From the NCBI GenBank assembly GCA_934120675.1, contig CAKOUU010000004.1, forward strand, positions 9,918 through 73,917: 64,000 nucleotides of DNA, read 5' to 3'. Below, in pieces: positions 727-17,460 of this stretch. The stretch is from an uncultured Clostridia bacterium. GTDB lineage: Bacteria; Bacillota; Clostridia; TANB77; CAG-508. Position numbers and translations under genes: made by a program. Position 1 is the first letter of the stretch. The number at the start of each line of letters is the position of its first letter. Under the pieces are notes generated by a model, which saw only the letters and a program-made list of their open reading frames with translations, did no database searches and was not told the DNA's origin.

Positions 727-1833
727 CTATTTTCCTACTATAAACGCATTTGGTAAATATCTTTCACCTATAGGAGTAGATGTTTTATTTACAACTTTTC
801 CATTATAATACATTGTAGCAGAAGAGCCTCCATCAAGGTTTGCTGCATTATACGCATTATATCTATTAAAGATATTTTGCATTTCTAACAAATTAGTACC
901 TATACTATATCCCGGTTGTCTACCATCAACTACAACAAATATAAATGTACCATCTTTTCTTTGTCCTATACCCATTCTAGGATGTATTCCACCAGAGTTT
1001 GAATTTTTTATTTGATTATTTCCATTTACAATTAAATATGGTCCAAACTCTATTGCTGATTCTATTCCTGCGTTCATAGCTTGTTGATATGTATACTTTC
1101 CAAGTACTAATTTTTTATCTGTAGATAGTCCAATTAAACTATATTTCGTACTTTTATTTCCATACAACAACTTTTTATTTATAATAGTTGCATCACATAA
1201 TACATTACCTGCTCCAACTCCACCATCATCAGCGAATCCTCCTGCATTTATTCCTGCTATAGCATTGTTGTTTTTAACAATTTCACTCAATTTTGAGCCT
1301 CTATTTGATTTTCTTGCATCTACCAATTTTACCTTTGTTGCATCAGGTATTGTCATTACATATCCAACATAATTTTTTCCTGTTATTTTTTCAACTTTTA
1401 TATCATCATTTGTTTCATTGGTATTTATTTTTATTTCATTTGAATTAGAATCTTCATTATTTTGAACTTCTAACTTACTCATTATTTCTTGTATTTCCTC
1501 ATCTGACAAGAACCATGTTGCTAAATATTGATGGTTCATTGTAGACATTGCTGTAACAACCCATAATTCTTTGTACTTTTGGAATAATGATGTTTTAAAA
1601 AATAGAAATATAAATATTGCAAACAATAAAAATAACGCTATAATTATTTTTATAAATTTAAATATTCTTTGTTTTATAGTTTTCTTTTTCTTATGTTTTC
1701 CTTTTGTTTTTTTATTTTTACTATCTAGTTTAAAATTTTCTTCGTTTATTTGTTCATTTTCTTGTTCTTCATGTAATTTATATTCATTATTTAATATTAC
1801 ATTTGTTACTGTATCTAAATCTTGCTTTTGCAT
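727..1833 (-). CDS. phosphodiester glycosidase family (DUF2233/NAGPA-like) membrane-anchored protein
   Basis: 368-aa ORF with RBS GAGAGGA. Lys-rich N-terminus and one TM helix. C-terminal domain shows GINAGGF...HPRMGIGQ...VVVDGRQ...NLDGGSSATM. Confidence 0.7.
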   Translation of the reverse strand: MQKQDLDTVTNVILNNEYKLHEEQENEQINEENFKLDSKNKKTKGKHKKKKTIKQRIFKFIKIIIALFLLFAIFIFLFFKTSLFQKYKELWVVTAMSTMNHQYLATWFLSDEEIQEIMSKLEVQNNEDSNSNEIKINTNETNDDIKVEKITGKNYVGYVMTIPDATKVKLVDARKSNRGSKLSEIVKNNNAIAGINAGGFADDGGVGAGNVLCDATIINKKLLYGNKSTKYSLIGLSTDKKLVLGKYTYQQAMNAGIESAIEFGPYLIVNGNNQIKNSNSGGIHPRMGIGQRKDGTFIFVVVDGRQPGYSIGTNLLEMQNIFNRYNAYNAANLDGGSSATMYYNGKVVNKTSTPIGERYLPNAFIVGK

Positions 1834-1915
1834 CTTTTTTCCTCTCGTATTTTTATTATTTTAACATTTATTTGCAATATTATAGAAATACTTTCAACAT
1901 TTCTACCTCTGCCAA

Positions 1916-2773
1916 TTAAACATCATCTTTTGATTTTTTTCTAATATTTTTTAAAGTTTTATTAAGCTCTGCACCCAAAAATAATGAATAAAAACAAGAA
2001 TATGTCCACATCATTATTAGCATCAATGTTGTCAAGCTTCCATAAGTTATAGAAAATCCCTTAAAAATATCTAAGTATTTAGAAAATACAAATGATATAA
2101 TATTTAAGGCAAGTGCACCAAATATTGCACCAGGAATCTGGCTTTTAAATGTCACTTTATGTTTTGGCATAAATCTATATAAAAATAAGAATATAATAAA
2201 TGTTGCCAAAATAAATCCTAGTTCTGTTACGACTTGTGAAAAAGTACTAAAATTTTCTAATGCTCCAAAGTGTTGTTGCATCAATGATTTTAAGCTGTTT
2301 CCAAAAACTAATAAGACCATTCCTAACATTATTAAGACAATAAATATTACTGTTTCTATTAATGCCATTATTCTTAAATATATAACTGATTTTTCGCTAT
2401 CTTCTCCTGTATTATATACAGAATGAAGCCCTTTTGTTAATGCAAATAAGCCCTTTCCAGCTGACCATAACGTAAATATAATTGATACTGATATTGTTCC
2501 AATTGATTTTGAATATACTTCTCTTACTATCCCTATTACAAACTCATTCATACTTGATGGTATTATTTTTGAAATTGCATCAAATAATGTCTGTTGTTGT
2601 ATATTTGTATATTGTATCAATGTTATTAGCAATATGACAAATGGTATAAATGATAATATTGTATAATATGAACATTGAGCCGAATATTCACTTATATGGT
2701 CATCTCCACTATTTTTTAAAATCATATTAAATTGTTTCATTCTTTTAGAAATCTTCAATCTTATTTTTTCCAT
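1916..2773 (-). CDS. YihY/BrkB family membrane protein
   Basis: 285-aa multi-TM ORF. N-terminal DHISEYSAQCSYYTILSFIPFVILL pattern is typical of the YihY family. Confidence 0.7.
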   Translation of the reverse strand: MEKIRLKISKRMKQFNMILKNSGDDHISEYSAQCSYYTILSFIPFVILLITLIQYTNIQQQTLFDAISKIIPSSMNEFVIGIVREVYSKSIGTISVSIIFTLWSAGKGLFALTKGLHSVYNTGEDSEKSVIYLRIMALIETVIFIVLIMLGMVLLVFGNSLKSLMQQHFGALENFSTFSQVVTELGFILATFIIFLFLYRFMPKHKVTFKSQIPGAIFGALALNIISFVFSKYLDIFKGFSITYGSLTTLMLIMMWTYSCFYSLFLGAELNKTLKNIRKKSKDDV

Positions 2774-2863
2774 TGTTCTTCCCTTTACTTTTAACTTATT
2801 TTTTCAAAAATCTTTCACAAATCAATTTTTTTAGAAATTTAATAACTTCTATATTATTCTATT

Positions 2864-3688
2864 TTATTTAGTTTCTTTTTTATTCTTTATTTTTGTCTTT
2901 TTAGGTAATTCTTTTAAATCTCCAACTTTATCAATAATTTCTCGTTTTTGCTTATTCATATTTTCTTTGAATTCATCTGTTTGTTCTTCAACTTGTCTTT
3001 TAATTTCTTCTTTTTTTTCTTTAATTTTAATCTTGATTGATTGAACTTTTGGGTATGCTTCTAATAATCTTCTATATAATCCAGATTTGTTTAGTAATGC
3101 CTCTTTTACCTTATTTGTTATTTCTTCAGTATTGTCTAGACTCTTTCCAAATTCTTTTGTTGTTTTTCCAACAAATCTTATAACATTAGTTGAAATTATA
3201 TTATCTAATAAAAATATTGTTAATAATGCTCCTGATATTATATTTAATTCAAGTTCTGGTAATGCTTCAATTTTTCCTATTAAGAATGGATTTGAAACGT
3301 ACATTATAAACATTCCTAATAAACCGAATGGAATTATTGTATTTAAACATACTCTTCCATTTATGTTGAATTTTCTTTGACTATAGTCCCACCATCTTGC
3401 ATGATAAATTTTTTCCATAACATAACTTGTTAAATATTCTAGTGTTCCACATACAAGTATTGCCATTACAAATAGAGCAAATGGATCTGGTACATATTTT
3501 TTTAATAAAAAAGTTATTAATATTGCTCCTGTTCCATATATAGGGCAATATGGTCCTATTAAAAATCCTCTATTTATAAATTTCTTTTTTTCAATTAATT
3601 TTCCTACTACTTCCATACACCATCCTGCAACAGAATATGTTAGAAATAACAAGAAATATACTCTTATATCTATTCCAAATATTACCAT
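2864..3688 (-). CDS. putative ABC-transporter type IV family (PF06541-like) membrane protein
   Basis: 274-aa ORF with GWCMEVV...FINRGFLIGPYCPIYGTGA motif, several TM helices and a Lys/Glu-rich C-terminal tail. Confidence 0.6.
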   Translation of the reverse strand: MVIFGIDIRVYFLLFLTYSVAGWCMEVVGKLIEKKKFINRGFLIGPYCPIYGTGAILITFLLKKYVPDPFALFVMAILVCGTLEYLTSYVMEKIYHARWWDYSQRKFNINGRVCLNTIIPFGLLGMFIMYVSNPFLIGKIEALPELELNIISGALLTIFLLDNIISTNVIRFVGKTTKEFGKSLDNTEEITNKVKEALLNKSGLYRRLLEAYPKVQSIKIKIKEKKEEIKRQVEEQTDEFKENMNKQKREIIDKVGDLKELPKKTKIKNKKETK

Positions 3689-3826
3689 TTTCTTTCCTCC
3701 GTTTTATTATAATTTTAAATCTTTATACTTGACAATATTATCAAAGTATTAAAAAATTTTAAATCTTTATACTTGATAATAGTATCTAAGTATTAAAAAT
3801 TTTAAATTTCATATGCAATATAATTA

Positions 3827-5885
3827 TTATATCTCGATTCTATCTGTAAATTTGTTTTTAACTGATATTTTTAATAACCTATTTTCTTCTTTTTCTAATT
3901 TAGGGTCTTTATTTACAATTTTTACTGCTGCTTCCTGAGCCAATTTTAAAATATCCATGTCTGTAAACAAATTAGCAATTTTAAAATCTGGAATACCATG
4001 TTGCATTGTACCAAAGAAATCTCCTGAACCTCTTAGTTCCAAGTCCTTTTGAGAAATAAGGAAACCATCATTAGTTTCACACATAATTTTCATTCTTTCT
4101 TTAGTATTTTGTCCTTTTCCCTTAAATTTTAAAACACAATATGATTTATACTCACCACGGCCAACTCTTCCACGCAACTGATGTAATTGTGCTAATCCAA
4201 ATCTTTCTGCATCTTCAATTACCATTATATTTGCATTTGGAACATCAACACCCACCTCAATTACAGTTGTTGAAATAAGTATATCTATTTCCTTGTTTTT
4301 GAATCTTTCCATTATTTCGTCTTTTTCTTTTGGTCTCATTTTTCCATGTATATATTCGACTCTGTAATCAGGGAATGTCTCTTCTTTACATTTTTCATAT
4401 AATGATGTAACTGCTTTTAAATCTGTGTCCTCTTCTTCACTTTCTTCAACCAATGGACAAACAATATAGGCCTGTCTACCTTCGTCAATTTGTTTTTTTA
4501 TAAAATTATTGATTCTTTCTTCCATTCTATTTGTAACTGCAAATGTCTCTATTGTCTTTCTATTTGGTGGAAGTTCGTCAATTATTGATATGTCCAAGTC
4601 ACCATATAAAATTAATGCAAGTGTTCTTGGAATTGGTGTTGCAGACATAACTAAAACATCTGGATTTTGGCCTTTTTGTGCAATTTTTGTTCTTTGCTTT
4701 ACTCCAAATCTATGTTGCTCATCTGTAACAACTAGACCCAAATTTTTAAATTCTACATTTTCTTCTAGCATTGCATGTGTCCCAATTAATATATCAATTT
4801 CACCATTTTTCAAACGTTCTAAAATATCTTCTTTTTTCTTTTTGCTGATACCTGATATTAATAATTCACATTTTATATCAAATTGATTTAGCATTTTTTC
4901 AAAGTTAACCATATGTTGTGTTGCAAGTATTGCTGTTGGTGCTAAAATCGCTGCTTGATATCCAGATTTTACGGCTTTGTATGCAGAAATCATTGCAACA
5001 ACTGTTTTTCCAGAGCCAACATCACCTTGTAAAAGCCTATTCATTGATTTTTCTGATTCCATATTTTCATCAATTTCTTGTAACACTCTTAATTGTGCTT
5101 TTGTTAATTTGAATGGCAATGTGTTTATTACATCTGACATCTTTACATTTTTGTCAAACGTAATTCCCTTTTTATCTGTTAAATTATTATTTTTTAATTG
5201 AAGTAATGCCAATTGAGTTGTTAGCAATTCTTCAAAAACTAATCTTCTTCTTGCCTTTTTAAAGTCCTCAAAATCATGTGGAAAATGTATATCATAATTT
5301 GCCTTGTTTGCATTTTCTAATTTGTATTCATTTAATATATAATCTGGTAAAGTCTCTGGCAAACCACCTTGTTCCTTGACTTTTTGTAATCCGTTTTCAA
5401 TTATTTTTCTTAAAGTATTTTGGGTTAAACTATATGTCAATGGATAAATTGGTATTATTTTTCCAGTATTATTTGAATTTTCTATCTCGTCAAATACAGG
5501 GGAATTCATGCTTATTTTTCCATATTGAAACTCAACTTTTCCATAAAATCTGTATTTTTTTCCGTATTTGGAATTTTGATTTTAGGTATGGTTGATTGAA
5601 CCATGTTATTACTGCTTGTCCTGTTTCGTCAATAACTGCAAGCCTTTGTATTGTTCTGCCTTTACTTATTCTACTATCTACTAGTCTTGACATTGCTACT
5701 GCTTCTATTAATGCAACTTCTCCATTTGCACATTCACATATATTTTTCGGCTTACTTCTGTCTTCATATCCTCTAGGATAATATGTAATTAAATCTTCAA
5801 CATTGAATATTCCTATCTTATTTAGGAGTTTTACCTTTTGCGGTCCTACTCCTTTTATATATTTTACATCTTCTGTTAAATTCAT
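3827..5885 (-). pseudogene. recG: ATP-dependent DNA helicase RecG, interrupted by a +1 frameshift (or needs +1 recoding)
   Basis: The wedge-domain ORF 5532-5885 and the helicase ORF 3827-5509 (GDVGSGKT, DEQHRFG, QLHQLRGRVGRG) are in different frames. Skipping the C of CGG (plus-strand g5564) gives a continuous KFQI-GKKYRFYGKVEFQYGKISMNSPVFD. Confidence 0.85.
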
Positions 5886-8313: not shown

Positions 8314-8394
8314 TTTTTATGCTTCCTTTCATTTTGTATTAAAAATATAATATATGTGCCTAAATATCTACTTTAAAACTTTGAAAAAAATAGA

Positions 8395-8421
8395 GGGATT
8401 TTTGTCCTGTCCCCCAATCCC
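8395..8421. terminator. GGGATT...AATCCC family hairpin terminator
   Basis: gggatttttgtcctgtcccccaatccc is flanked by A7 and T7 runs, between the M50 protease stop and the tsaD start. Confidence 0.65.
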
Positions 8422-8427
8422 GTTTTT

Positions 8428-9168
8428 TTATAATCCAAATATTAATTTTCCTAATGCTAAAACTCCTTTTGAAACCCAGTTTATTGCAGGTGTTATTATT
8501 GTACCAGCAATGCCTGTTATCCAAATTAATACAAATACAATATAAAATATTTGCTCATTATTTACAAAAAATTCTTTTGCCTTGTATGGTAAAAATGGCA
8601 TTATTATTTTTGAGCCATCTAGTGGTGGTAATGGTATCAAGTTAAATACACCAAGTCCAATGTTTATTGAAATTGTACTTGATAATAACATTAATATTAC
8701 CATTCCTACAGTTGATGTCATAAAAGCAATTCCTGCAAATTTGTATATTGCACAATATATTAATGTGAATATTATTGCAAGTATAAAGTTCATTAATGGT
8801 CCTGCAAGTGAAACTATTGCTTCTCCTTTTTCCATCGAAATTTTTCTTGTATAATTTCTTGGGTCTACTTCTACTGGTTTTCCCCATCCAAATCCTGCAA
8901 CTAATAGCATTAGTGTTCCTATTGGGTCTAAGTGTGCAAATGGATTTAGACTTAGTCTTCCTTGCCTTTTTGCTGTGTCATCCCCTAGTTTATATGCTGC
9001 ATATCCATGTGCAAATTCATGGAATGTTATTGCTATAAGCACTCCTGGTGCACTTAGTAATAAACCTAATAATTGACCTGGATTTGTTGCATATTGTACT
9101 ACTAAAAAAAACAACATAATTCCAATTATTATATACATTGTTCTTTTGTCAAAATTAAAACTAAACAT
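8428..9168 (-). CDS. site-2 protease family (peptidase M50) membrane metalloprotease
   Basis: HEFAHG (HExxH) and NLIPLPPLDGSKI (NxxPxxxLDG) motifs in a multi-TM protein. ATG 9168 is preferred because it follows RBS AAGGGAG. The ORF track begins at TTG 9198. Confidence 0.8.
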   Translation of the reverse strand: MFSFNFDKRTMYIIIGIMLFFLVVQYATNPGQLLGLLLSAPGVLIAITFHEFAHGYAAYKLGDDTAKRQGRLSLNPFAHLDPIGTLMLLVAGFGWGKPVEVDPRNYTRKISMEKGEAIVSLAGPLMNFILAIIFTLIYCAIYKFAGIAFMTSTVGMVILMLLSSTISINIGLGVFNLIPLPPLDGSKIIMPFLPYKAKEFFVNNEQIFYIVFVLIWITGIAGTIITPAINWVSKGVLALGKLIFGL

Positions 9169-9211
9169 AAAATTCTCCCTTCGTTTACATATCCCCAAAT
9201 ATTTTCACTTA

Positions 9212-9943
9212 TTAATCCACTTCTTCTGATACTTGCTTTATTAACGATTCAAAGTCTGATAATTTTTTATCAAGCCTAACTTGGCATTTTTGAAAAACTT
9301 CAACTAATGCTTCAACATTTCCAGTTGTTTGTGCCTCATATAATGCTTCTCTATATTCCTTATTATATTCATCGTCTATTGCTATTAAATCAACCGAATT
9401 TTCTATACATTGTCTTAATATAATAAATCTTCCTATTCTTCCATTTCCATCTTGAAAAGGATGTATATGTTCAAACTTTTGATGAAAATCAGCAATTGAA
9501 TAAATATCCTTTTTACTTTCTTTCCAGTCTTCTAATAAATTATACATTTTATTTTCTACCAAATGTGGTTCACATAATTTTAAATCTGTTTTTGATAATC
9601 TATTTTCATATTTTTTCCATTTTCCTATATTATCAATTTCGTCATCAACTGTTCCTTTTTTTAGTAGTCTGTGCCATTCCCACAATAAATATTTGTCAAA
9701 AGGTTCTTGCAATGTATTTATAACTACATCAAATAATTCTAATGAATTTTTTGTTTCTATTACATCATCTAAGAAGTGTTCTCCTTTAACCTGTTTTTGT
9801 TCTAGTAAATCTATTAAATTTTCTTTACTAAATGTACTTCCTTCGAGTTTGTTTGAGTGATATAAATATTCTATTTTTATTGCGTCATATACTGAATTTT
9901 TTATTTTTGATAATTTTTGTATTACTTTTACAGATATTTTCAT
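9212..9943 (-). CDS. Fic/DOC family protein, class II-like (N-terminal inhibitory motif)
   Basis: Fic active-site motif HPFQDGNGRIGR. The N-terminal SNKLEG fits the (S/T)xxxE(G/N) inhibitory helix. ATG 9943 is preferred after RBS AGGGGGG. Confidence 0.8.
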   Translation of the reverse strand: MKISVKVIQKLSKIKNSVYDAIKIEYLYHSNKLEGSTFSKENLIDLLEQKQVKGEHFLDDVIETKNSLELFDVVINTLQEPFDKYLLWEWHRLLKKGTVDDEIDNIGKWKKYENRLSKTDLKLCEPHLVENKMYNLLEDWKESKKDIYSIADFHQKFEHIHPFQDGNGRIGRFIILRQCIENSVDLIAIDDEYNKEYREALYEAQTTGNVEALVEVFQKCQVRLDKKLSDFESLIKQVSEEVD

Positions 9944-9962
9944 AATGTTCCCCCCTTTTATC

Positions 9963-10382
9963 TTAGATATCAAATGATTTTACAAATTGTATAATATCAC
10001 TATTCACTTTTTGTATTCTCTCATCATTTTCAAATTCTTTAAAAGAAAACCACTTGTATTTTATATTAAAACACTGAAATTCTTTTTTATTAAATTCTTC
10101 AATATTTTTTAGTATGTTTACTTTATAAAAGAAATGTTGATATTCTTTTTCTATTTTATCACTTTCTGAGAATTTTTTATGTATCTTTTCACTAACAAAT
10201 GATATCTCAACATCTTCCTTCTCAATGTTTAACATTTCTTTTATTTCGTTATAAATTGATTCCATGTCTTCTTTGTTTTTCATTTTACTGTTTAAAAATA
10301 AATAGCAATTCCATTTTTTGTCATAATATTGTAAATATTCATTTTTTTCGTTTTTTATTATGATTATTGAATGTGTGTTCAT
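9963..10382 (-). CDS. hypothetical protein, weakly Nudix-fold-like without a canonical Nudix box
   Basis: 139 aa from ATG 10382 (RBS AGGGAGAA). Pattern IIIKNEKNEYLQYY...WNCYLF...HFFYKV...WFSFKEF. Ends 19 nt before the Fic start. Confidence 0.45.
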   Translation of the reverse strand: MNTHSIIIIKNEKNEYLQYYDKKWNCYLFLNSKMKNKEDMESIYNEIKEMLNIEKEDVEISFVSEKIHKKFSESDKIEKEYQHFFYKVNILKNIEEFNKKEFQCFNIKYKWFSFKEFENDERIQKVNSDIIQFVKSFDI

Positions 10383-10474
10383 AACTTTTCTCCCTTTTGG
10401 TTTATCTTTTGATTTTTTCTTGTTATTATATTTCATACTTTATCATATTTTTGTTAAAATTTCAATTACTATAC

Positions 10475-12301
10475 TTATTTTTCTTTCTTAAAATATTCGA
10501 TTTCATATTTATCCAATAAATCCATAGATATTTTTCCTTGCTTTAATGCTTCTTCTGCTGTCATTGCAACCCCATTTGGAAAATATACCATAACAACCTT
10601 TGTTTTTTGTGAAGGATAATAATACTCATATTTTTCGTCTTCAAAAAATTTATATTCTCCCCCTTGTAAATATTTGCTATAATATTTCTCTCTATCTGCT
10701 AAAGTTGTACTATCAAATATTTTAGTTTCATCTGTTTCTTCTATCTTTTCTAAAATGTCATTGTTATCTACTTTTAATGCAAAATACGGTTTATCAAAAT
10801 TTGCCTCTTTCATAAATATTATAAAAGTATCTTGAAAATAACAATATTTTGTATCTTGTCCTATTCCCATATATTCTGTAACCATTGTTGCTTTACTTGA
10901 TAAATTACATCCTCTTTCATTTAAATAAAAATTAACATTTTGTATAACATCATATATGTATAATCCTTTAGAATTTTTTATCTTTTTATCATATAATTGG
11001 TTGTAATTAATCATTCCATTTACCTTTACATATGGAACTCTTAGTTCGTCATCTTCTGAAAATTCTGTACGTCCTTTATAGTTTTTTGTTTTTGCTTTTA
11101 TGTCTTCATAATATTCGTCAAATGATTTTTTATCATCTGTTCTATAAAGTATTATTTCGTCTCCTTCTTTTGTTTTTAATTTTATAGCCATATCATTACT
11201 TAATAAACTACCATTATTTAATTTATTATAAAATAGAATTTCAACATTTTTATTCATTTTTTCTGAACTCGCATTATTTATTCCAAAATATTTAATATAT
11301 TCTTCACTATTTCCAAATGTCCATTTATAATCACTAAAATTGTCAAATGATTCTAAAAAGTTCAATTCTTTGTTAAGTGTAGCATCTATTTTGTATCCAT
11401 TTGTAACTGTTCTTTCTACATTTATTTTATAATCATTTGGATTCAACATTTCTTTTGAAAATGTACTTTCATTTAAATCATTTGCAATTTGTGGCATTTC
11501 ACCTTCTAATTCTATCTTATTTAATCCAATTTTATCTTCTAGTTCTTTCCATGCTAAATCTAGTGTTCCCACCCATAAATTATTTATTGTATTTTCATCT
11601 AGTGTACTTTGATATGATGGATTCATTGTAATATTATGATTTGTATTATTTTTTATATACTTATTATATATAACTGTTGTAGCATAGACTATTCCTGATA
11701 ATGCAATTGTTGTGCATATAATTATTACAAAAATTTTCAAAACTTTATTCATTTTATCAAATCCTTTCTTTAGCAGGATTTTTCTTAATTGTTTTTTTCC
11801 TCTATGTATTAAATTCTTTGTGTTTTGTAGAGTTTCTCCTAATATTTTAGATGTTTCTTCATAAGATAGTCCTTCAATATTTACGAGATAAATTGCATTT
11901 TTATATCTTTCATCTAACAATTCTATTGATTCTAATAGTTCTTTTTTACTTTCCTCTGTTGTAATAATATCTAATACATCTTTTTCAATTTGTTCATCAT
12001 CATTTGTAAGATATTTTTCTGTTATTTCATTTCTTCTTTTTTCTACATTTATATAATTTAGTGCTTTGCTTCTTGCAACAAGATATATATAGTATTTAAA
12101 AGAACTATTTTCTCTCATTTGGTGCTGTATAACGTATATAAAAGTTTCTTGAGCTATGTCCTCTGATTTTTGATAGTCTTTTACTATGTTATAAATAAAA
12201 TATTCAATTTTATTTTTGTATTTGTTATAAAGAATTTCAAATGCTTCTTTTTCTCCATTCAAATAATCATTGTACAATTTTTTATCTAAATCTTTCTCCA
12301 T
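10475..12301 (-). CDS. membrane-tethered ECF-type sigma-70 factor fused through one TM helix to a serpin-like extracytoplasmic domain
   Basis: aa 1-180 carry sigma regions 2 and 4 (EDIAQETFIYV; LSYEETSKILGETLQNTKNLIHRGKKQLRKIL). The TM helix is IFVIIICTTIALSGIVYATTVIY. The C-terminal ~390 aa show serpin-like blocks (INVERTVTNGYKID; LRVPYVKV; VNFYLNERGCNLSSKATMV; FQDTFIIFMKE). Confidence 0.6.
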   Translation of the reverse strand: MEKDLDKKLYNDYLNGEKEAFEILYNKYKNKIEYFIYNIVKDYQKSEDIAQETFIYVIQHQMRENSSFKYYIYLVARSKALNYINVEKRRNEITEKYLTNDDEQIEKDVLDIITTEESKKELLESIELLDERYKNAIYLVNIEGLSYEETSKILGETLQNTKNLIHRGKKQLRKILLKKGFDKMNKVLKIFVIIICTTIALSGIVYATTVIYNKYIKNNTNHNITMNPSYQSTLDENTINNLWVGTLDLAWKELEDKIGLNKIELEGEMPQIANDLNESTFSKEMLNPNDYKINVERTVTNGYKIDATLNKELNFLESFDNFSDYKWTFGNSEEYIKYFGINNASSEKMNKNVEILFYNKLNNGSLLSNDMAIKLKTKEGDEIILYRTDDKKSFDEYYEDIKAKTKNYKGRTEFSEDDELRVPYVKVNGMINYNQLYDKKIKNSKGLYIYDVIQNVNFYLNERGCNLSSKATMVTEYMGIGQDTKYCYFQDTFIIFMKEANFDKPYFALKVDNNDILEKIEETDETKIFDSTTLADREKYYSKYLQGGEYKFFEDEKYEYYYPSQKTKVVMVYFPNGVAMTAEEALKQGKISMDLLDKYEIEYFKKEK

Positions 12302-12367
12302 TTTTTACCTGCTTTCATTTATATATAACAGTAACATTAAATAAAGTTTCATATATAATAGCATAAA

Positions 12368-12392
12368 AGCAAGTGAGTATCAATCACTTGCT
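12368..12392 (-). terminator. intrinsic terminator (AGCAAGTG stem family)
   Basis: agcaagtga / tcacttgct stem with a 7-nt loop and a T-rich tail on the minus strand, downstream of the stop at 12422. Confidence 0.65.
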
Positions 12393-12421
12393 CTTAAACA
12401 TTTCTAAATACTTATTATAAA

Positions 12422-13438
12422 TCAGTCTAATTTTACAATCAATAATTGATTTGCATCAATTGAACTATCAATACTATTATACCCATATTCATAAGCCTCT
12501 CTTTCAGGAAAATACCTTTTTGTCAAGTATTTAAATGAAATCGAATTAATTTTTTTATTTATTGAATTTCTTTCATTCATAAAAAATATTCCATCTTTAA
12601 ATTCTAAATCAATTATTCTAATATAATCATCATATTTTGAATATATTCTTAAAAAGCCTTCTTCACCATTTTGAGATTTTTTTATTAGTTCATCAATTGC
12701 ATATTTATCATTTGACAATATATTGTAGTTTTCTTCTACAAAGCAACCGTCGTTCAGTGCATTTTCCACACTATAATTGTCTGGTAAAGAATCTAGACTA
12801 GCAAAATTATTAGTTTCTATCTTTGGATATTCAATAGTTATATTAGTTTTTTCTCTTAACAATGCCTTATCAATAATAGCATATAATGTTATAGTCGTTT
12901 TATTATAGTTTGGTTTTTCTTTTTGTTTTAACTTTATACAAGTTGTTGTTTCATCAGCGTTAACATCTGATATTGTTAAATCAGATTCATATGGTTGGCG
13001 AGAGCCCCAATTTCCAATAATAATCAAAAAATTATCATTAAAACTGTCTTGTGTCATTTCTGGTAATTCATTTATCTTTGTTTTGTATATATCATAATCT
13101 TCGATATTTGTTATTATTTTGTAATATAAATCAACTTTATCTGCATATATCATATCGTTTGAAAAATCGTTTGAAAAAGTGCATTCTTTTACAACAAAAA
13201 GTTGATTTGAATTTATTTCATTTTGTTTTTTTATATATTCATTGTAAATTTTATTACTAGCAAATACTATCCCTGTTGTTCCAAACAAAGAAATAATTAT
13301 AGCGGCTACAATTTTAAAAAAACTATTCTTTTTTATACTTTCTTCTTTTTTAATTTCCGATAAAATTACTTCATAATTATTATTTTTATTATAATATTTA
13401 TCTCTAAAATATTTTTGTAATTCTTTTTTATTCTTCAT
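12422..13438 (-). CDS. membrane-anchored anti-sigma-like protein
   Basis: ~338 aa with a short cytoplasmic N-terminus, the TM helix FFKIVAAIIISLFGTTGIVFA and a large ectodomain. Its start overlaps the end of the upstream sigma reading frame. ATG 13438 follows RBS GGGAGG. Confidence 0.6.
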   Translation of the reverse strand: MKNKKELQKYFRDKYYNKNNNYEVILSEIKKEESIKKNSFFKIVAAIIISLFGTTGIVFASNKIYNEYIKKQNEINSNQLFVVKECTFSNDFSNDMIYADKVDLYYKIITNIEDYDIYKTKINELPEMTQDSFNDNFLIIIGNWGSRQPYESDLTISDVNADETTTCIKLKQKEKPNYNKTTITLYAIIDKALLREKTNITIEYPKIETNNFASLDSLPDNYSVENALNDGCFVEENYNILSNDKYAIDELIKKSQNGEEGFLRIYSKYDDYIRIIDLEFKDGIFFMNERNSINKKINSISFKYLTKRYFPEREAYEYGYNSIDSSIDANQLLIVKLD

Positions 13439-13971
13439 CTTTTTCACCTCCCGAAAAATTTTTTCTTATTTTTTTTAACATTCTATATAAATTTGTTTTT
13501 ACTGTTGATTCATTTATTTCCATCTCTTCAGAAATTTGCTCAAATGTCATATCTAAAGCAAAATGCAAATAAAAAATTTTAGCTGTTTCAACATCTAATT
13601 GAATTATGTACTTCCAAATTTTATCTAAATTGTCTTTTGTAATAAAGTCTACTTCTATATTTATGCCGTGAATCTATATCAATTGTAAATTCTTCATTAT
13701 CATTTTCTCTATAAATAGAAATAACTTTTATTTTTTCATTTGATTTGTAATATTTTATTATCTTATTTTTGGCAATAGTTATAATGTATGCTTGATAATT
13801 TATAACTTCTTTTTTATCCTTTATTATCCTATATAATTCTAAATAAGTTTCTTGAATAATGTCATCTACATCATTAAGATTATTACATTTACATATTATA
13901 TATTTAAGTGTATTGTTATATGTTTCATTATATATTTTGTTAAATTTTTTTAAAAATTTATGAGTACCCAT
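13428..13971 (-). pseudogene. ECF-type sigma-70 factor interrupted by a +1 frameshift
   Basis: The region-2 ORF 13621-13971 (DDIIQETYLELY) and the region-4 HTH (MTFEQISEEMEINESTVKTNLYRMLKKI, stop 13428-13430) are in different frames. The junction window 13624-13673 contains an in-frame CGG at 13666-13668. Confidence 0.7.
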
Positions 13972-15757: not shown

Positions 15758-16915
15758 TTATTTTTCTATAAGATTATATTGATCTTCCATTAATTGTGCA
15801 ACTTGTTCATTTGAACCATTCCATCTATTTCCACCAATAATTTCTCCTGTCGTTGCATCAACATAATAAACATATCTTTCTTGATAATACTCATTATAAT
15901 AATCATAATAAATTTTTACTTCCCAAACTTTTCTGACACGATTATCAACTTTGTAAAATTCTGCGTTATCTTTTATTTTATATGTTCCATTTTCATCACA
16001 TTCATAATTAATTGTTCCTTTATTGTAATTTTCTATATCTTTCTCTCTATATACAACATCTGCATTCATTTTATCGATACCAATTTGTGCTTCGGTAGTT
16101 GCTATATTATGCCTTGTTTCAATTTTTTTATCTCTTTCTGTTGCAATTCTTATTGCTTCCTCTTTTGTAATAATTTGTTCATTATTTTCATATTTTGAGT
16201 TTTCTATATTTAGACTATATAGACCATTAATTGTTGGTATCCACCCAATTGATATTTTTTCGTACTGATTATATAAATCTCCATATTTTTTATAAAAATC
16301 TGCATACCAAATATATGAAGCCTTATCATTTTCCATATTTCTATGAAGTGATACTAATTCGTATTCATCATTATTATTTTCTGGATTATATTTTGCTAAT
16401 AATTCTTTTGCCGTCTTTCTTGCTTCTTCTCTTGTAATTCCATAATTATATGGAATTTTATAATTATATGATGGAATATTTAAACTTTCAAAATTCCCTT
16501 TACTATCCATCTGCATTGTTCCTTTTGTGAACCCTATATCCCATATAACATCATTTCCTCGCCAACTTTTCATTAATCCTAGTCCGTTTATTTCATCTTC
16601 TAATCCTATTTTTCTTAAATATTCTTCTGCTTTTTTTCTGGCATCTTCCTCACTAATTGCATTTTCTTTATCTTTTTCAGTAATTTCATTAGATACTTTA
16701 TATGATTCAGGTTGTTTCCATATTTTATCATAAATGGCAGTTCCTGTTGCATATACTATTCCTGTTCCTATTCCTAATGTTATAATCGCTGCTGCAACAT
16801 ATTTTGAAATTTTATTTATTTTCGGCATTTCTTTTTTCTCCTTTGCAAATTCAGATACAGCTATTTTTATTTGTGATTTTTTTATAATGTTTTCTATTAT
16901 TTTATCTTCTTTCAT
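15758..16915 (-). CDS. membrane-anchored PepSY-repeat protein (putative anti-sigma partner)
   Basis: TM helix YVAAAIITLGIGTGIVYA followed by repeated PepSY-like units (ISEEDARKKAEEYL; ITREEARKTAKELL; ITKEEAIRIATE). Overlaps the 3' end of the upstream sigma gene. Confidence 0.6.
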   Translation of the reverse strand: MKEDKIIENIIKKSQIKIAVSEFAKEKKEMPKINKISKYVAAAIITLGIGTGIVYATGTAIYDKIWKQPESYKVSNEITEKDKENAISEEDARKKAEEYLRKIGLEDEINGLGLMKSWRGNDVIWDIGFTKGTMQMDSKGNFESLNIPSYNYKIPYNYGITREEARKTAKELLAKYNPENNNDEYELVSLHRNMENDKASYIWYADFYKKYGDLYNQYEKISIGWIPTINGLYSLNIENSKYENNEQIITKEEAIRIATERDKKIETRHNIATTEAQIGIDKMNADVVYREKDIENYNKGTINYECDENGTYKIKDNAEFYKVDNRVRKVWEVKIYYDYYNEYYQERYVYYVDATTGEIIGGNRWNGSNEQVAQLMEDQYNLIEK

Positions 16916-17460
16916 AACCATACCCCCTTTTTTCTAATTCATTCTTTAATTTTTTTCGTATTCTTGATAATCTTGATTTCACTTTAATTTGTGATAATTT
17001 TAATAAACTTGATATATCTTTTATTGATTTTGACTGATAATAATAATATGTAAAAATATTTTTATCTTCTTCTTTCATTTTTGTTAGTTCATTAGTTAAT
17101 ATATTTATTTTTTCGTTTTCTTCTATTTTAATATGTATATCATTATTTTTTTCATATAATAAATTTTCATATTCTTCAATATTTTCATTGTTATTTTTGA
17201 TATTATTTTTTCTTTTTAATATCAATTTTTTAGTTATTCCTGCTATGTATGGAGCAATCTCTTTATTAATGTCTAATTTTTCTTTGTTTTTCCATATTAC
17301 AAGAAATACATCTGATGCTATTTCTTCTATGTCTTCATTATTAAATACACATCCACTATTTTTTATTATCATAAATATATATCCGTGCAAAATCATTCAT
17401 TATTTTTTCCATATCAATGTTTCCATTAATAATATATTCTTTTATTTTTTTGTTTTTCAT
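16902..17460 (-). pseudogene. ECF-type sigma-70 factor interrupted by a +1 frameshift near its 5' end
   Basis: ATG 17460 (RBS AAGGAG) opens MKNKKIKEYIINGNIDMEKIMNDFA and then reaches CGG (17383-17385). The rest of the protein (GYIFMIIKNSG...EDIEEIASDVFLVIW... region 4 SIKDISSLLKLSQIKVKSRLSRIRKKL) is in the +1 frame. Confidence 0.7.

Follow-up and report, generated by a model that had tools for sequence, protein, structure and literature searches.

An uncultured Clostridia bacterium, from which one 64,000-nucleotide (nt) stretch of DNA is analysed here (contig CAKOUU010000004.1, positions 9,918 to 73,917; hereafter ‘the window’), encodes a membrane-tethered extracytoplasmic function (ECF) sigma factor in which the sigma domain is joined directly, through a single membrane helix, to an outside domain that is likely to be a remote and pared-down homologue of the serpins. 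The protein, termed the sigma fusion in what follows, is 608 amino acids (aa) long, and its open reading frame (ORF; 10475..12301, minus strand) was defined by ORF calling and Pfam. Its activity is proposed to be governed by RsiV-like regulated proteolysis, in which a signal peptidase would make the first cut and a general site-2 protease the second; every proteolytic step in this reading is deduced by analogy, and a probability of about 0.45 is assigned to it. An earlier note on this DNA had placed the gene at the head of a dedicated operon that also supplied an M50 site-2 protease and a Fic enzyme. That tempting reading is corrected below: as judged from gene neighbourhoods, the M50 and Fic genes are incidental neighbours of the sigma fusion gene.

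That one polypeptide combines a sigma domain with a membrane helix and an extracytoplasmic domain, as first described in the earlier note, is borne out by domain and hydropathy searches. The ECF sigma domain occupies residues 1-180 (11762..12301, minus strand) and contains regions 2 and 4: Pfam assigns Sigma70_r2 (PF04542) to residues 24-89 (E 1.7e-9) and Sigma70_r4_2 (PF08281) to residues 121-172 (E 5.4e-11), and the NCBIfam model TIGR02937 (sigma70-ECF) is matched with 64.9 bits, above its cut-off of 42.9. With regions 2 and 4 present and no further sigma domain in the Pfam scan, the protein belongs to the ECF (group 4) sigma factors. Exactly one membrane-type segment was found by hydropathy scanning of the 608 residues: hydropathy peaks in the 19-residue window beginning at residue 187 (mean Kyte–Doolittle value 2.5), and outside starts 183-194 no window exceeds 1.6. 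Together with the alignment of related fusions, this defines a single transmembrane, signal-peptide-like helix at residues 187-209 (11675..11743, minus strand). Between the end of region 4 (about residue 177) and the first residues of the helix (about residue 187) there is a linker of about 8 residues, too short to accommodate an anti-sigma domain; indeed, Pfam gave no domain match, anti-sigma or other, between region 4 and the helix. We infer that the sigma domain is cytoplasmic and that the rest of the protein, an outside part of 399 aa, lies beyond the membrane.

The possibility that the 608-aa ORF is an artefact of assembly or of a frameshift was considered and rejected. A homologue search returned more than 100 near-identical 608-aa sequences (gut sequences, 97-100% identity), and an N-terminal ECF sigma domain is present in 72 of 263 retrieved family proteins; the near-identical sequences and the 72 diverse fusions together establish that the fusion is genuine and widespread. 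At E<=1e-3, a search of a library clustered at 50% identity assigns 1110 representatives to the wider family, and about half of the best 120 profile matches are fusions of 533-557 aa that carry Pfam annotation for their sigma domains only. There is no Pfam model for the family, and the names seen for its members in the source records were uninformative, being ‘hypothetical protein’ and ‘RNA polymerase sigma factor’ only. It is abundant in human-gut Clostridia, and the close relatives come from uncultured human-gut and animal-gut Clostridia (e.g. Clostridium sp. CAG:389 and Clostridium sp. 28_17). The same pairing of parts is also found as two genes: in locus L039 the gene for an anti-sigma-like, serpin-like protein shares 8 nt with that for an ECF sigma factor, and sigma/anti-sigma-like pairs of this form occur in L044 and L109. 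The ectodomain is found in stand-alone proteins as well, some of which have ordinary signal-peptide-like or lipobox-like ends.

Two further observations were made on the family. In a related species, two paralogous sigma::serpin-like fusions lie in tandem, as in L004 (6001-7824 and 7965-9575) and also in L005-L007 and L034; the two L004 proteins, of 607 and 536 aa, are 51% identical to the window protein, and each gene has its own copy of the promoter motif described below. A sister clade, recognizable by CGTFQLAWNE ... PYFALWV motifs in proteins of 360-530 aa, was found in soil, sediment and peat metagenomes (L073-L120). This environmental clade is common in metagenomes and mostly lacks adjacent sigma genes; the L097 member carries an N-terminal CarboxypepD_reg domain.

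The serpin-like extracytoplasmic domain covers residues about 224-520 (10742..11632, minus strand), as delimited by AlphaFold (AF2), Foldseek and family profiles. Profiles were built from two alignments, A1 with 105 family members and A4 with 39 environmental members, which hhalign relates to one another with a probability of 100% (E 9e-62, 319 columns). When the A1 profile was compared with PDB sequences at E<=10, all 32 of the 32 sequences matched were serpins (best E 0.037), and the alignment spans s5A, the hinge, the reactive-centre loop, s1C, s4B and s5B at the extreme C-terminus of the serpin. With the A4 profile 20 of 21 PDB matches were serpins, a bacterial serpin among them, and the best E-value was 0.0018. 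Using hhalign, A1 was also aligned with alpha-1-antitrypsin over 94 columns, which begin at s6A (‘LHLPKLSI’) and reach the end (E 2.8e-4, probability 41%). Among ten distant relatives, six gave sub-threshold matches to Pfam Serpin (E 2e-5 to 0.04; best match for five of them), with scores of 13.5-24.5 bits against a cut-off of 27 and with profile positions of about 300-370 of 370 covered.

Structure prediction points in the same direction. A single-sequence AlphaFold run on residues 210-608 was unusable, with a predicted local distance difference test score (pLDDT) of 38.7; the model built on the A1 alignment reached a pLDDT of 85 and a predicted template-modelling score (pTM) of 0.76. Foldseek searches of PDB with the A1-based model yielded 322 matches at E<=1e-3 (best E 1e-8), of which the best 50 were all serpins with a probability of 1.00, most of them native-state structures. 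The earlier note had aligned blocks of the domain with the serpin core and had proposed structure prediction as the check; at the level of remote homology its serpin assignment stands on profiles, model and Foldseek, and what does not stand is membership of the Pfam Serpin family and an inhibitory hinge. Indeed, Pfam Serpin (PF00079) gave no match for residues 210-608 even at E<=10, the curated threshold was thus not reached, and phmmer of the ectodomain against PDB also gave no match.

It could be argued that the ectodomain is not homologous to serpins at all, and that a partial or convergent fold match has drawn attention to an unrelated ligand-binding module. The failure of Pfam Serpin to match the window protein would fit this explanation, as would the TM-scores of 0.25-0.40 and root-mean-square deviations of 5-15 A among the best 50 of the 322 Foldseek matches, and the PDB profile matches to serpins are marginal (E 0.002-0.04) and lie mainly in the last 60-100 residues. 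In addition, the domain is about 280-300 residues long, against 370-400 in serpins, and about 80-100 shorter than the canonical ones, and the AF2 model predicts fewer helices than serpins have, describing a divergent, helix-poor ectodomain; the window protein lacks a 33-residue helical insert that is found in most relatives. Set against this are the uniformity of the best 50 Foldseek matches, the consistent placing of the 32/32 and 20/21 PDB profile matches at the equivalent of s5A-loop-s1C-s4B-s5B, and the sub-threshold Pfam Serpin matches in six of ten distant relatives, so an origin outside the serpins is regarded as quite improbable. The low TM-scores, the short and helix-poor domain and the non-canonical hinge are the reasons for calling the domain a remote homologue, likely on profile and model evidence, and not a member of PF00079.

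Within the domain, the equivalent of the hinge and reactive-centre loop is G464-K485 (GCNLSSKATMVTEYMGIGQDTK; 10847..10912, minus strand), which was aligned to the hinge and loop of alpha-1-antitrypsin. The middle of this loop, residues 468-480 (fragment positions 259-271), is the sole internal segment of the AF2 model with a pLDDT below 50; a reactive-centre-loop region, as the earlier note had supposed, is thus represented by a disordered loop at the equivalent position. G464 is 95% conserved in the family. The hinge reads E-R-G-C-N-L-S-S-K-A in the window protein and (E/N)-K-G-G-K-L-K-S-E-A in the family consensus, neither of which matches the inhibitory hinge consensus (P17-P8, E-x-G-T/S-E-A-A-A-x-T, with small residues at P12-P9); all that is kept of it is the glycine and an alternating buried/exposed pattern. 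Even positions of the loop are hydrophobic or small, and the exposed loop is compatible with strand insertion. Beyond the serpin-like part lies a C-terminal domain of about 60 aa (residues 546-608; 10478..10666, minus strand), recognized by its recurrence in the representative search. This module is found elsewhere in tandem stretches (six in P0205, five in P0252, four each in P0254 and P0263 and three in P0262), has no Pfam family and is modelled by AF2 with a pLDDT of about 67-84; a role as a binding repeat is conceivable.

At the outer end of the membrane helix lies the motif S202-G-I-V-Y-A207 (11681..11698, minus strand), identified by its conservation in the family, which would place a putative signal-peptidase-type site-1 between A207 and T208. 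The extended form S-G-(I/V)-V-Y-A-(T/S)-x-K-I-Y-(E/N)-N is found at this position in 67 of 73 sigma-fused relatives, and across 58 unique fusion sequences the glycine is conserved in 100%, the valine in 81%, the tyrosine in 79% and the alanine in 96%. The helix of the fusions has the n-h-c layout of a signal peptide, with V205 at -3, A207 at -1 and a helix-breaking S-G before them, and a conserved x-K-I-Y-E/N-N-x-K segment follows directly after the putative A207/T208 site. By the -3/-1 rule alone, which was the basis of the assessment, the V-Y-A motif looks like a signal peptidase I site; judged by its conservation profile, it is conserved far beyond the needs of a plain anchor. Among the unfused family members, 51 of 105 contain a looser G-x-x-[YFVILC]-[AG] pattern, and several of these look truncated or are likely to be anti-sigma-like; the remainder have ordinary anchors, signal-peptide-like ends or a lipobox-like end, and many are without the helix-end motif. 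The motif also recurs, as G-(I/V)-V-(Y/F)-A-(S/T)..I-Y, in two anti-sigma-like ORFs of the window (12422..13447 and 15758..16921, both minus strand), whose ectodomains are unrelated to that of the sigma fusion: the first has no Pfam match and the second is PepSY/DUF4901-like. The presence of one motif in the sigma fusion and in both anti-sigma-like ORFs suggests a common processing module in these ECF systems.

The sigma fusion gene is probably transcribed from its own conserved ECF-type promoter, with positive autoregulation. Upstream of the gene, an intrinsic terminator hairpin with a U-run (12364..12396, minus strand; fold -18.7 kcal/mol, z = -3.5 versus shuffles) ends the preceding unit and marks the predicted 5' boundary of the sigma gene's own transcription unit. 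Between this terminator and the start codon lies an ECF-type promoter-like motif, TGAAAC-N16-GTTATA, followed by the leader TGAAAGCAGGT (12312..12355, minus strand), which is conserved in orthologues. The TGAAAC-N16 layout is typical of Firmicutes ECF promoters. Taken over 19 distinct orthologue upstream regions with otherwise unrelated flanks, the motif begins 49-51 nt 5' of the start codon and has the consensus TG(A/T/C)AACTTTTTT, about 10 nt, GT-rich -10-like bases and the leader TGAAAG(C/G)AGGT; in P0121-type orthologues its distance from the predicted start is about 235 nt. When the window was scanned with a 44-nt matrix the native site was the sole site above 8 bits, at 50.3 bits. A 36-nt matrix found the motif upstream of almost every orthologue and added one weaker window site of 17.8 bits, which precedes a frameshifted sigma gene at 13971. 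Neither matrix gave a copy before the 139-aa orphan ORF, the Fic gene or the M50 gene that follow the sigma fusion gene in the window; the conservation of the motif at the sigma gene and its absence before these three genes point to autoregulation and a transcription unit of its own.

Two side observations concern the promoter and the genes upstream. The frameshifted ECF sigma gene (13448-13971, minus strand) lies upstream of the 341-aa anti-sigma-like ORF at 12422-13447; its region 2 is in a 116-aa ORF and its region 4 in the +1 frame, and it is either a pseudogene or the product of a sequencing error. Strains of 97% identity lack this sigma/anti-sigma pair as a whole and have DUF218 directly upstream of the sigma fusion. 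In L044 a 33-bit copy of the promoter motif (1594-1629, plus strand) stands, at about 1.9 kb upstream of the two-gene sigma/serpin-like anti-sigma pair, before the gene for a membrane-anchored protein of 210 aa; the 210-aa protein may be a member of the regulon, and a single candidate is too little to name one.

Conservation of the promoter and the form of the helix both bear on a different explanation, according to which the ectodomain would be a secreted or surface serpin-like protease inhibitor, set free by a constitutive signal-peptidase cut that would also free the sigma domain stoichiometrically, so that the protein would form a feed-forward loop and not a sensor. The n-h-c layout with valine at -3 and alanine at -1, the conserved promoter, and the signal-peptide-like or lipobox-like ends of some unfused members are what this explanation would predict. 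It is made unlikely by the conserved x-K-I-Y-E/N-N segment after the site, as the equivalent region of RsiV protects the site until the signal arrives (PMC6066255), by a hinge unlike the inhibitory consensus, and by the expectation that an unregulated positive loop would run away.

The preferred reading, regulated proteolysis, is built on precedents. Signal peptidase acts as the regulated site-1 protease and RasP as the site-2 protease for RsiV (PMC6066255) and RsiP (PMC8844934), residues just after the site shield it from cleavage until the ectodomain binds its signal (PMC6066255; PMC8844934), and the IutY sigma/anti-sigma hybrid is released by Prc and RseP (PMC8999054); it is on account of RsiV, RsiP and IutY that an ectodomain-gated signal-peptidase cut followed by site-2 release is proposed here. 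Held at the membrane by its tether, the sigma domain would be inactive or restricted. A change of state in the ectodomain, through binding of a ligand or protease or through loop cleavage, would uncover the V-Y-A site at the outer helix end, the serpin-like ectodomain thus gating access to A207/T208. Signal peptidase would then perform the site-1 cut between these residues, as for RsiV and RsiP, and a general site-2 protease would remove the membrane stub and free the sigma domain, which would activate its own promoter plus a regulon. A more specific version, which we think unlikely, would make the ectodomain a metastable serpin-fold bait for a protease: cleavage of the loop would lead to its insertion, to unmasking of the V-Y-A site and so to release of the sigma domain.

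Several points weigh against regulated proteolysis of a serpin-like sensor, and the distance from canonical serpins set out above (low TM-scores, a short domain and a hinge without the inhibitory consensus) is the first of them. Loop hypervariability among orthologues, of the kind that arms-race selection produces in inhibitory serpins, was not found. DUF4179 (PF13786), the RsiV-type module, was not detected by Pfam at E<=0.1 or at E<=10. The tether alone must silence the sigma domain, because there is no anti-sigma domain; the stub left on the sigma domain by site-2 cleavage could make it a target of cytoplasmic proteases; and the M50 protein could still contribute in this strain, there being no terminator between the sigma gene and the M50 gene.

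The missing anti-sigma domain is also the starting point for a model in which the sigma domain would be active whilst tethered, like ToxR and CadC, and the ectodomain would tune it through oligomerization or conformation without proteolysis. That no anti-sigma domain separates region 4 from the helix, and that no dedicated protease is conserved nearby, would both be accommodated. The S-G-V-Y-A motif is over-conserved for a plain anchor, however, and resembles a peptidase site; a linker of about 8 residues would be expected to press RNA polymerase against the bilayer; and the known fused ECF systems use proteolysis (PMC8999054). Activity in the tethered state is accordingly held to be rather improbable.

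The operon question turns on the genes 3' of the sigma fusion gene. In the earlier note's model, a dedicated operon would supply the whole switch: an external protease would cut the serpin-like loop and the co-encoded M50 protease would then cut the helix. The layout of the locus is what gave rise to it. The sigma fusion gene is followed on the same strand, in a surrounding region of low GC (about 23-29%), by the orphan ORF, the Fic gene and the M50 gene, and the spacings of 92, 19 and 43 nt given in the earlier note are exact when the ATGs preceded by a ribosome-binding site, at 10382, 9943 and 9168, are used for the three downstream genes; all four genes are on the minus strand. RNA folding of the three gaps from the sigma gene to the M50 gene showed no stable hairpin, a terminator-like site follows the latter (a weak hairpin with a U-run, 8384..8421, minus strand; fold -12.1 kcal/mol, z = -0.3), the catalytic motifs of the M50 protein are intact, and the N-in/C-out orientation of the sigma fusion indicated by positive-inside residues suits site-2 proteases.

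Comparison with relatives tells against this model. Between strains that are otherwise 92-97% identical the Fic gene is present or absent: it is present in the window (9212-9962) and in L013, and L001-L003, L010 and L016 lack it, with about 750 bp cleanly missing (L001 junction 8334/8339). The region 3' of the sigma gene stop is variable within the species (94-98% identity). In L013 an extra ECF sigma/anti-sigma pair lies between the sigma fusion and the orphan; two large genes for serine recombinases of 515 and 562 aa stand in tandem directly 3' of the sigma fusion in L009 (8993-12234) and L012 (downstream region 1838-5079), with unrelated genes after them; and yet other genes occupy this position in L015 and L011. 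The serine recombinases of L009 and L012 suggest that the 3' end of the sigma fusion is a hotspot of rearrangement or the site of a mobile element. Further afield, 17 orthologous loci (56-80% identity) had no cluster of neighbours common to more than three of them, and tblastn found no M50, Fic, orphan or tsaD gene there; neither an M50 homologue nor a Fic gene was present in 82 metagenome family loci, and the Pfam-annotated neighbourhoods of P0121, P0129, P0316, P0353 and P0378 contained neither Peptidase_M50 nor Fic. The survey of linkage in relatives, which the earlier note had named beforehand as one of the points on which its model would fall, thus gave no conservation across strains, orthologues or metagenome loci.

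Since the linkage is lost in strains, orthologues and family loci, the reading of sigma, site-2 protease and Fic genes as an operon fails, and the lack of a sigma promoter motif before the orphan, Fic or M50 genes adds to this. There is a mechanistic objection too: in RseP/RasP systems it is shedding of the ectodomain that normally licenses site-2 cleavage, and cleavage of a serpin loop does not shed the ectodomain. A dedicated operon is hence considered very unlikely, and on the neighbourhood evidence the orphan, Fic and M50 genes are incidental neighbours of the sigma fusion, not dedicated components of a functional unit with it.

The three downstream genes may be described in their own right. 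The orphan ORF (139 aa; 9963..10382, minus strand, ATG 10382) is found at loci of the same species only and lies outside the conserved system. Its label as Nudix-like in the earlier note was rejected: a regular expression for the Nudix box (GX5EX7REUXEEXGU) found none, there was no Pfam NUDIX and no PDB sequence match, and the sole trace of such a relation is an E of 0.024 to an RppH model. The other two gene assignments were confirmed. Class II Fic proteins are defined by an HxFx(D/E)GNGRxxR motif together with an N-terminal inhibitory (S/T)xxxE(G/N) motif. Both are present in the product of the strain-variable accessory Fic gene (9212..9943, minus strand, ATG 9943), which matches PF02661 (E 3.5e-16) and has HPFQDGNGRIGR at residue 161 and SNKLEG at residue 30, so that it is of class II type. 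The small M50 (site-2 protease family) gene (8428..9168, minus strand, ATG 9168) encodes 246 aa that match PF02163 (E 3.5e-14), with HEFAH at residue 50 and NLIPLPPLDG at residue 176; the site-2 protease motifs HExxH and NxxPxxxLDG are therefore both in place. It was rejected as an orthologue of RseP/RasP, being 246 aa long with Peptidase_M50 as its sole Pfam domain and related weakly to RseP models, and it adjoins tsaD in every locus where it was seen. No RasP-type gene was found in the window, the other HExxH protein there being FtsH-like.

Elsewhere in the window, recG looks split into a 117-aa wedge-domain ORF (5532-5885) and a 560-aa helicase ORF (3827-5509, minus strand). The split is probably genuine for the lineage, the same split being called in contigs L001-L003.

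Membrane-spanning ECF sigma factors that are fused to further domains are already known, namely IutY and ECF52/53 (PMC8999054; PMC5826349). What is new is the serpin-like sensor, from a family without a Pfam model, and the direct tether without an anti-sigma domain. In line with the earlier note, which knew of no characterized sigma factor with a serpin sensor, a search of the literature on sigma and anti-sigma factors combined with serpins gave nothing relevant, nor did it yield any account of the serpin-like family itself, and the parts consulted of the large ECF reclassification paper mention no such group. Host digestive proteases are a major stress in the human gut, where the family is abundant. 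Should the serpin-like domain act as a conformational switch, it would represent a new bacterial way of sensing proteases and a new use of the serpin fold, and if the bait version holds, extracellular proteolysis by a host or microbial protease would be turned directly into transcription. The helix-end motif and the promoter offer immediate experimental handles.

The sigma fusion can be compared with several known systems. Serpins (PF00079, including the bacterial thermopin-type 1sng) are the only proteins that its predicted ectodomain fold matches, among the best 50 of 322 matches; over its C-terminal 95-100 residues the ectodomain can be aligned with s6A/hI-s5A-hinge-loop-s1C-s4B-s5B, with the hinge glycine and an F-x-x-x-x-P-F-h-h-h-h motif in register, and a disordered exposed loop takes the position of the reactive-centre loop. 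It differs from them in scoring below the Pfam gathering threshold, in being shorter with fewer helices, in being tethered to a transcription factor and in its hinge, which reads G-C-N-L-S-S-K-A-T compared with G-T-E-A-A-A-A-T in serpins. The eukaryotic-style arrangement of SREBP and ATF6 combines a direct type II helix tether with a lumenal sensor and release by site-1 and then site-2 (M50) cleavage; the likeness is an analogy only, the proteins, the site-1 proteases and the cellular context being unrelated. The ECF52/ECF53 proteins of Actinobacteria (e.g. SCO4117) share with the sigma fusion a long, membrane-crossing C-terminal extension with an extracytoplasmic domain, and their activation is predicted to occur by proteolysis (PMC8999054; PMC5826349); they belong to another phylum, cross the membrane with one to two helices and combine a zinc-finger anti-sigma-like segment with carbohydrate-binding domains, a serpin-like domain being absent.

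The closest mechanistic parallels are RsiV/sigmaV and RsiP/sigmaP, which, like the sigma fusion, are Firmicutes ECF systems with a signal-peptide-like helix, small residues at the outer site and a conserved segment after it. In RsiV and RsiP the state of the ectodomain has been proposed to gate access to the site (PMC6066255; PMC8844934), and cleavage in the sigma fusion would follow by analogy. In these systems sigma and anti-sigma factors are separate proteins, however, and RsiV has DUF4179 and a lysozyme-binding ectodomain, whereas the sigma fusion has no DUF4179. IutY of Pseudomonas putida (ECF243) is similar in architecture, with an ECF sigma domain that a single helix connects to an extracytoplasmic domain, and it is activated by regulated intramembrane proteolysis (PMC8999054). 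It works with a FecR-type anti-sigma domain and a TonB-dependent receptor partner in a Gram-negative envelope, whereas the sigma fusion dispenses with an anti-sigma domain and carries a serpin-like ectodomain in a Gram-positive-type Clostridia host.

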